Shown here: one piece after another, positions 20,341 through 22,589 of the stretch
Layout: each line of letters opens with the position of its first letter
How positions within the stretch are numbered: the stretch's first letter is position 1
DNA from: Carcharhinus longimanus
Taxonomy: Eukaryota
Length of the DNA: 64,000 nt
Assembly: GCA_030264375.1 (NCBI GenBank)
Contig: JASCQW010000146.1
Location: 30,495,152 to 30,559,151 of the forward strand
Reading direction: 5' to 3'
Translations under genes and position numbers: made by a program
Notes under the pieces: generated by a model
Database searches by the model: none
What the model was told of the DNA's origin: nothing
Seen by the model: the letters and a program-made list of their open reading frames with translations, nothing else

Positions 20341-20802
20341 ATGACACAGAGTGAGGCACTCAGAGCCTGTGATTTTTGGAGATAGGAAGAGGCAAACAGT
20401 CGCAAATATGTTTGTCAGCTGCATAGGCCCCTCGCATTGCCCGCACTGGTTAAGTCCCTTAACAATAATGCCTCTATTCCAAAATAGTACACACCTGCGC
20501 TGCCCCTCTTGTCCTCATCACTCCTCTGGTTCTCACTTCACTGCACTGCGTCCCTGGTGTGTAGCTGCCTTCTCACTGCTTTGCCACTGCCTTGCCTCCT
20601 CCTCACTGCTGCCTGTGTGCCAAGCCTCTGCCTCTCCTTGCCATCGATTCTCCTCATCACTGATGCCATCGCTGTCTCTCCTTGCCACTGCCATCTCTCC
20701 TTGCGACTGCTGCCACCACCTCTCCCTCCTGCCTTTAGATTTGTACCCAATATGACGTATCCACATCCTTTCCAGCAGACGACGCATCGACCCTTGCATT
20801 AC

Positions 20803-20926
20803 CTTGTCCAGCCTCTGCGCAGTCCACGGTGAAGTAGGTGGGCTCGAAGGCCTTCAGCCCGGTCTTGGCCACACCTGGACCATAAACTTTGACCTTCTGG
20901 GGATGACTGCCAGCTCCCACATTGAC
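20803..20926 (-). CDS. FLNA: Filamin A-like exon (124 bp), Ig/filamin repeat
   Basis: [46 protein letters not shown] splice sites intact. Confidence 0.85.
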
Positions 20927-21024
20927 CTAGGAGGGGGAAGAGAGAAAGAGCGTCCATGAGAGAGACAGAGAAAGGGCAAGGAGAATTGAACCGCGATGTC
21001 CGGGAGTTGGCGACAATGACTCAC

Positions 21025-21168
21025 CCTGAAGGGACTCTCTGGTATGTTGACCCCACCCCACGACACCATCACCGTGTGCTTGAGGGGTTTCTTGGGGGTG
21101 TACGAGCAGGAGTAGGTGCCATCTTTGTTGTCCTTCACACGCACGTCAATGGGTAGGCCTTCCGAATC
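21025..21168 (-). CDS. FLNA: Filamin A-like exon (144 bp)
   Basis: [48 protein letters not shown]; taag| acceptor and |gtgagt donor. Confidence 0.85.
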
Positions 21169-21290
21169 CTTAAAAAGTCAAAACATGAAGGGACACAGTT
21201 TCACCATTGGATTTGGAAAAAGGTGGAGCTGGGGATAAAAAAACAAGTTCACGCAAGGCCTCATTTTACCCCAAAGCAGCCCCGTTTTAC

Positions 21291-21404
21291 CTGACCGTAG
21301 ACCTTCAGCTGGGCTTTGCCAGCATTCTTGGCGTCCACGGTGAACTCGGCTGGTTTGTTGATGATCATTCCAGTACTCTGCAATCCTGGCCCGTAGGCCT
21401 TCAC
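21291..21404 (-). CDS. FLNA: Filamin A-like exon (114 bp)
   Basis: [38 protein letters not shown]; ctgcag| acceptor and |gtaaaa donor; splices in frame to the next two exons. Confidence 0.85.
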
Positions 21405-21617
21405 CTGCAGGGAGACACCAAAGAGAGTAAAGACCCCCCCCCATCCAATTAGAGACTTCCCTTCTTCCCCTCCCCCACCCCTTTTACATATTTGTGTTGT
21501 CAACTCCATTAGGAGCCAGGAGGGGGCCCCCTTGAGCCCACTCCGCCATCTGATCAGAAGGTTATCTCAACCCTACTTTCACACATAGCCTTTCAAGCCC
21601 TTGTTAATCTCTCTCTG

Positions 21618-21905
21618 CGGGCAGCAGCGGTTAGCACTGCTGCCTCTCAGCACCAGGGGCCCCGGGTTTGATTCCCTGCTTGGGTCACGGTCTTTGTGGA
21701 GTCTCCGTGGGTTTCCTCCGGGTGCTCCGGTTTCGCCCCACACCCCAAAGATGTGTGGTTAGGTGGATTGGCCTTGCTAAATTGCCTGTTAGTGTCCCAA
21801 GATGTGCAGGTTAAATCTGTGAGGTTACAGGGAGAGGGGCCAGGTGGGATTGTTGTTGGCGATGGGCCGAATAGCCTCCTTTTGCACCGTAGGATTCTAT
21901 AATAA
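21618..21905 (+). mobile_element. HE1-like SINE, little diverged
   Basis: GGTTAGCACTGCTGCCTCTCAGCACCAGGG head, GGTTTCCTCCGGGTGCTCCGGTTT core with CpGs retained, tail GATGGGCCGAATAGCCTCC...GATTCTAT. Confidence 0.9.
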
Positions 21906-22589
21906 TCCGGCCTTAAAGATTCCAAGACTCTGCTTCCTCCACCTTCTGAGGAAGAGGGTTCCAGAGACTCAGCCCCCTCATCTCCTTCTGCAATGGGTGA
22001 CCCCCTTATTTCTGAAAGGGTGACACCCCCCCCACCCCAGTTTTTTTTTTAAATTCTTTTGTGGGACATGGGCATCACTGGCTGGGCCTGGCATTTGTTG
22101 CCCATCCCTAGTTGCCTGGNNNNNNNNNNNNNNNNNNNNNNNNNNNNNNNNNNNNNNNNNNNNNNNNNNNNNNNNNNNNNNNNNNNNNNNNNNNNNNNNN
22201 NNNNNNNNNNNNNNNNNNNCTCTGCCTTTCAAAGGCTTCTTGCTGCCTATTCTCTGCGTCTGACTAGCTTGTCTCCTACCTCAGCTTTGATCTTCGCTTT
22301 GGCCATGGGCTTTTATTCCCAGCAATAGTGAGATCAAATAAATTAGGTGGGTCAATCAGAGCAAAGCCTCTCGGAGCACTGGTCGGCATATCAGCATCCA
22401 GTGCTCCAAAAGGTCTTGCTCTGATTAGCCTATTTGATTTCTCAAATTCTTTCTAAACTTTGCATGTTTGAACCAGCATTTGCTGGTCACTTGGCAGCTG
22501 CCATTTTTGTGGGCCCCTGGAGACCCTTCACAGACCCAGTTTGGGAAGACTGCAGTTTATCAATATATACTGTGGCATACTGTGCCTGC

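Follow-up and report, generated by a model that had tools for sequence, protein, structure and literature searches.

Three filamin A exons inside a hAT transposon of Carcharhinus longimanus most probably mark a chimeric join in the assembly

Three filamin A (FLNA) exons stand inside a decayed hAT transposon in the genome assembly of Carcharhinus longimanus (GCA_030264375.1), and we are very confident that they are the product of a chimeric join—an artefact of assembly, not a real feature. The window, meaning the whole stretch of DNA that was analysed, spans 64,000 nucleotides (contig JASCQW010000146.1, positions 30,495,152 to 30,559,151 of the forward strand); its features are collected in Table 1, and positions given without a scaffold name refer to it. 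An earlier note on this DNA had left two origins standing, namely a recent DNA-level duplication or transposition and a chimeric contig extension. The second is supported by what follows: the FLNA scaffold has a gap at precisely these exons, and the junction is crossed by none of the contigs listed.

The error probably arose in a contig-extension or gap-filling step as it moved along low-complexity sequence in the hAT element. At a 21-bp word shared with an FLNA intron the path would have switched into that intron, and extension would have continued until a repeat and a 100-N gap stopped it; some 1.4 kb of FLNA would thereby have ended up in the gap of the hAT element, with a hole left in FLNA.

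Table 1. Features of the window that bear on the misplaced FLNA block (positions in the window; a dot marks features given without a strand)
Feature	Position	Strand	Evidence
Decayed hAT DNA transposon, left part	18102-20727	-	remnant of a terminal repeat (near 18107), a disrupted transposase (20170-18320) and a low-complexity tract (~20480-20727)
Join point, a 21-bp word common to the hAT low-complexity tract and an FLNA intron	20707-20727	.	hAT-side contigs stop at 20727, FLNA-side contigs begin at 20707
Very probably misplaced FLNA block, with the three exons and their two short introns between incomplete downstream and upstream introns	20707-22119	-	FLNA-side contigs start at 20707 in 5/5 genomic runs
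FLNA coding exon, first of three	21404-21291 (114 bp)	-	splice sites; 30/38 aa identical to P0010; spliced in X8 contig
FLNA coding exon, second half of a filamin Ig repeat	21168-21025 (144 bp)	-	splice sites; 44/48 aa identical to P0010
FLNA coding exon, third	20926-20803 (124 bp)	-	splice sites; 41/41 aa identical to P0010; spliced in X8 contig
High-copy short interspersed repeat in the upstream intron part	21620-21900	.	many 65-90% matches; extreme contig depth
100-N gap	22120-22219	.	hAT-side contigs continue past 20727, continuation absent from assembly
Same hAT, right end	22220-22552	-	hairpin with 43-bp arms at 22340-22440, and terminal repeat

Judged by their sequence, the three exons are genuine FLNA. 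Intact exons of 114, 144 and 124 bp with canonical splice sites had been described earlier, and this description holds: the introns between them measure 122 and 98 bp, both are GT-AG, and the exons contain no stops. Their numbering as exons 14-16 of human FLNA is that of the earlier note and is putative. The 144-bp exon matches the Pfam Filamin family (E 4e-15), and its top PDB match is Filamin-A (4m9p, residues 238-285). Taken together, the exons share 115 of 127 residues with P0010, a 'filamin-A-like' protein of the shark Cetorhinus maximus; the two other filamin loci of the assembly, on scaffolds C130 and C162, carry their own versions of all three exons, which resemble the window exons less than P0010 does (26-35 and 29-31 identical residues per exon). 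The window exons therefore resemble FLNA more than they do either of the remaining loci, and they complete the FLNA reading frame, as set out below.

The place from which the exons are missing can be named. A search for the Filamin family (PF00630) yielded 69 matches; most of them cluster at three places, on scaffolds C105, C130 and C162, and one lies on the window scaffold (C146). Two proteins, P0001 and P0010, were mapped on the three loci: the locus closest to FLNA lies at C105:79.13-79.18 Mb, and residues 497-699 of P0001 are without a match there. The missing interval is covered by 3,899 N (C105:79141960-79145858), in a gap that begins mid-exon, and the three window exons correspond to P0001 residues 573-699. 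The check proposed in the earlier note, a search of the block against the same assembly, was run with 20737-21620 as a DNA query and returned the block itself as the only match, the home locus being N at these exons.

The preceding FLNA exon (residues 506-574) is displaced as well, to C105:78956916-78957109, 185 kb upstream, on a gap-bounded piece of 3,750 bp. Joined in order, this displaced exon, those of the window and the following C105 exon (at 79147170) form one open frame of 245 amino acids; aligned to P0010 without a gap, 229 of them are identical. Together, the block and the complete displaced piece would need about 5.3 kb, more than the roughly 3.9 kb estimated for the C105 gap; if both belong there, either this estimate is too low or some of the displaced piece is also foreign. 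Among the matches listed, the block overlaps the gap edges and the displaced piece at the level of repeats only.

Several observations on the filamin loci are recorded in their own right. The displaced C105 piece is a second misplacement from the gap that lacks the window exons. The FLNA locus as a whole (C105:79110001-79200000) is GC-rich (about 51%) and very gappy, with 34 N runs that make up 28 kb of 90 kb; by comparison, C130 has 16 N runs over 80 kb and C162 has 17 over 100 kb. Lone filamin-repeat matches outside the three filamin genes lie at C190:54872008, C119:50320053, C1:123181719 and C98:42545458, and are probably other proteins with one such domain.

Twenty-three sequencing runs were listed, and six of them were analysed as contigs rather than raw reads—five genomic runs (X1-X5) and X8, which stems from a related organism and is presumed to be RNA, although no run is recorded as such. 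An X8 contig skips precisely both short introns. Its two loose ends each match a C105 exon over 30 of 30 letters, one the start of the exon that follows the gap and the other the end of the displaced exon, and each match is unique (one of 96 loci). Because the ends match the flanking C105 exons, the three window exons belong to the C105 gene.

These results bear on one alternative: that the exons are part of an ordinary gene with long introns, or of a fourth filamin paralogue on the window scaffold. Intact exons with canonical splice sites are what such a gene would show, and there are many gaps in the window and its flanks. However, tblastn (E<=1) over the window and 50 kb on either side found no further filamin exon in 164 kb, which confirms the orphan status noted earlier; only one of the 69 family matches lies on C146; and the exons are an exact fit for what the C105 gene lacks, with the spliced X8 contig running into C105 exons. 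A fourth filamin gene was rejected, since the exons complete the C105 FLNA frame, and the chance we assign to this whole class of explanation is negligible.

The chimeric join predicts a seam, and the genomic contigs place one at the 21-bp word. All five genomic runs break there: hAT-side and FLNA-side contigs overlap only across 20707-20727, and both types then run into sequence unlike the window. The hAT-side contigs extend 630-812 letters beyond 20727, and the loose ends beyond the word agree across X1, X3 and X5, which come from three studies. No contig bridges the join in any of the five runs among the records listed; the record lists are complete for X1 (6), X3 (3) and X5 (2), and for X2 and X4 they comprise the records listed only. 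Contigs drop rare variants, and this applies to all runs used. The genomic runs represent four samples from three studies. Long pieces of X1 are identical to the window (depth at the word is shallow, 3-8), so that X1 is a possible source of the assembly and two studies count as independent; in X2-X5, which represent other individuals or relatives, the sequence departs from that of the window by about 1-3% or more. The join thus lies at a short shared word from which both sides continue elsewhere in independent data.

The assembly itself holds neither continuation. Both native continuations (on the hAT side, the first 30 letters) were searched in it and gave no match, and the 21-bp word, which served as positive control, occurs once. 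Missing continuations together with a single copy of the word are expected if two places with this word in common had been merged into a single path. The earlier note had set the left junction at 20737; FLNA-side sequence in fact starts at 20707, and the join lies 10-30 bp to the left of that position. The same note took CTGCCTTT near 20729 for a left flank echoed after the gap, which does not hold, as the motif is FLNA intron sequence. As a candidate target-site duplication CTGCCTTT was rejected: it lies inside the FLNA intron, and this 8-mer is found at five places in the window.

A shared word at a junction can also be read biologically. Microhomology at a junction is a trace of template-switching repair as well, and a private duplication, heterozygous or mosaic and confined to the sequenced animal, could have copied about 1.4 kb of FLNA by a template switch at the 21-bp microhomology while the originals fell into an assembly gap. 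The assembled junction is free of N, contigs cannot prove that the junction is absent, and the microhomology itself fits such repair. Against this, the scenario demands a coincidence with an assembly gap over the same exons; X1, with its long pieces identical to the window, has the hAT and FLNA sides in unjoined form only; the assembly lacks both unrearranged continuations, which is what their replacement by the join would produce; and the neighbouring FLNA exon is misplaced too. We regard a private duplication as very improbable. Real microhomology-mediated copying, in the sequenced animal alone, of three intact FLNA exons with their introns into an old hAT copy on another chromosome would amount to a first-generation capture of a gene fragment, and we hold this to be a slim prospect of the same order. 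In general terms, the recent transposition or segmental duplication offered earlier finds no support—the assembly holds one copy, its home locus being gapped at these exons, and the block has no target-site duplication.

The composition of the block had been taken as a sign of recent arrival. The block is indeed CpG-rich: GC is 53.5% with 27.6 CpG/kb, compared with 42.3% and 11.2 for the whole window, and both values exceed those of about 99% of equal-sized windows (n=298). Its CpG observed/expected ratio is just 0.39, and the C105 FLNA locus has a similar composition (GC 51.5%, 21.7 CpG/kb, o/e 0.33). The richness therefore stems from a GC-rich home locus and carries no information on age; of the earlier claim the richness stands, and recent arrival as read from CpG content was rejected.

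The farthest FLNA-side contig extends to 21648, and we infer that 21649-22119 is FLNA as well. The repeat in the upstream intron part, which we take to be SINE-like, occupies some of this stretch. Contig depth of the block versus its flank was 8.4 versus 11 in X2, 17 versus 20.2 in X3 and 16.3 versus 14.5 in X4; such depth is no measure of copy number.

The element around the block was assigned by homology. A full HMMER search with a 91-residue transposase fragment found homologues, and among six that were scanned, five have Dimer_Tnp_hAT and/or DUF4371, with matches at the cut-off or slightly under it; by tblastn the homologues map to the transposase stretch of Table 1 in three frames with stops. 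Pfam gave no hAT match for 12 transposase fragments of the window, and a word-based search with one fragment found no homologue. The nearest Atlas clusters of the flanking element are FAM200/GTF2IRD2 and ZBED5-like (0.95-0.96). The right terminal motif is present, and the left terminal repeat has decayed to about 10 bp. That the transposase is heavily broken, as first described, is evident from its stops and frame changes. A subterminal hairpin at 22340-22440, whose arms are 77% complementary, is found in other copies too.

Element sequence thus stands on both sides of the block. Genomic copies of the element are 69-78% identical over long matches, and at seven of 22 other hAT loci the left and right parts are both present, in the same orientation and collinear; the link from 20727 to 22220 is drawn from these paralogous copies and not from one joining contig. 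The gap at 22120-22219 likely hides the true continuation of the element. Since the block interrupts one hAT copy at this gap, the arrangement resembles gene capture.

Pack-MULE and Pack-TIR elements are DNA transposons that capture genes, and by analogy the hAT element could have taken up FLNA exons with their introns and transposed them. The block does lie between both ends of one hAT copy, in the assembly only. Yet the copies of the element are just 69-78% identical and its transposase is broken, while the exons are intact; the unique part of the FLNA block occurs at none of the 22 other hAT loci; contigs of relatives hold the hAT element and the FLNA intron apart; and a second FLNA copy is absent. 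Capture had been called unlikely in the earlier note, and the other loci agree. Pack-hAT capture was rejected because the join of fragment and element is common neither to other copies nor to relatives; we consider it extremely improbable.

Other features of the window were noted in passing. A C2H2 zinc-finger array (Pfam zf-H2C2_2, E 3e-35) lies at 40377-40979 (-) in an open frame of 200 aa that ends in non-finger sequence, and may be an exon of a zinc-finger gene or a relic. A reverse transcriptase fragment at 15623-16300 (-; RVT_1, E 2e-9) is probably a LINE relic, and a weak Myb/SANT-like match below the cut-off at 24913-25257 (+) may be a relic of a Harbinger-type transposon. Immediately after a 195-N gap, a short GC- and CpG-rich stretch at 46178-46500 (GC 64%) may belong to a promoter or may itself be a further block of foreign origin.

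If the chimeric join is the correct reading, the arrangement has no biological consequence. Its importance is practical: this assembly scatters pieces of GC-rich genes, and FLNA will look broken in annotation. Orphan exon islands beside 100-N gaps here should be compared with the home locus before they are read as gene capture. One literature search aimed at misassemblies, chimeric joins and gap closing in sharks found no paper.

Compared with known systems, the protein encoded by the window exons does not differ from vertebrate FLNA as represented by P0010 and 4m9p; only the placement in the assembly is odd. With the ZBED5/FAM200-like group of the hAT superfamily the flanking element has in common that its homologues share Dimer_Tnp_hAT or DUF4371; the window copy, however, is dead, with stops, frame changes and one decayed terminal repeat. 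Like Pack-MULE and Pack-TIR elements, it shows host exons with introns between transposon ends; unlike them, it has no donor copy elsewhere, no carrier copies, no target-site duplication of the block and a junction that no listed contig shows. Closer parallels come from earlier vertebrate assemblies, where GC-rich genes have been documented to be split or to carry Ns within their coding sequence (bioRxiv 10.1101/2021.04.09.438906); a gaplessly fused form is not described in the part of that preprint considered here. The 'false gene losses' of short-read vertebrate assemblies (bioRxiv 10.1101/2021.04.09.438906) are alike in that exons of a GC-rich gene lie across scaffolds with Ns at home, whereas the stray FLNA piece abuts foreign sequence with no gap between them, the fusion point being a 21-bp word within a transposon copy, and so mimics capture.
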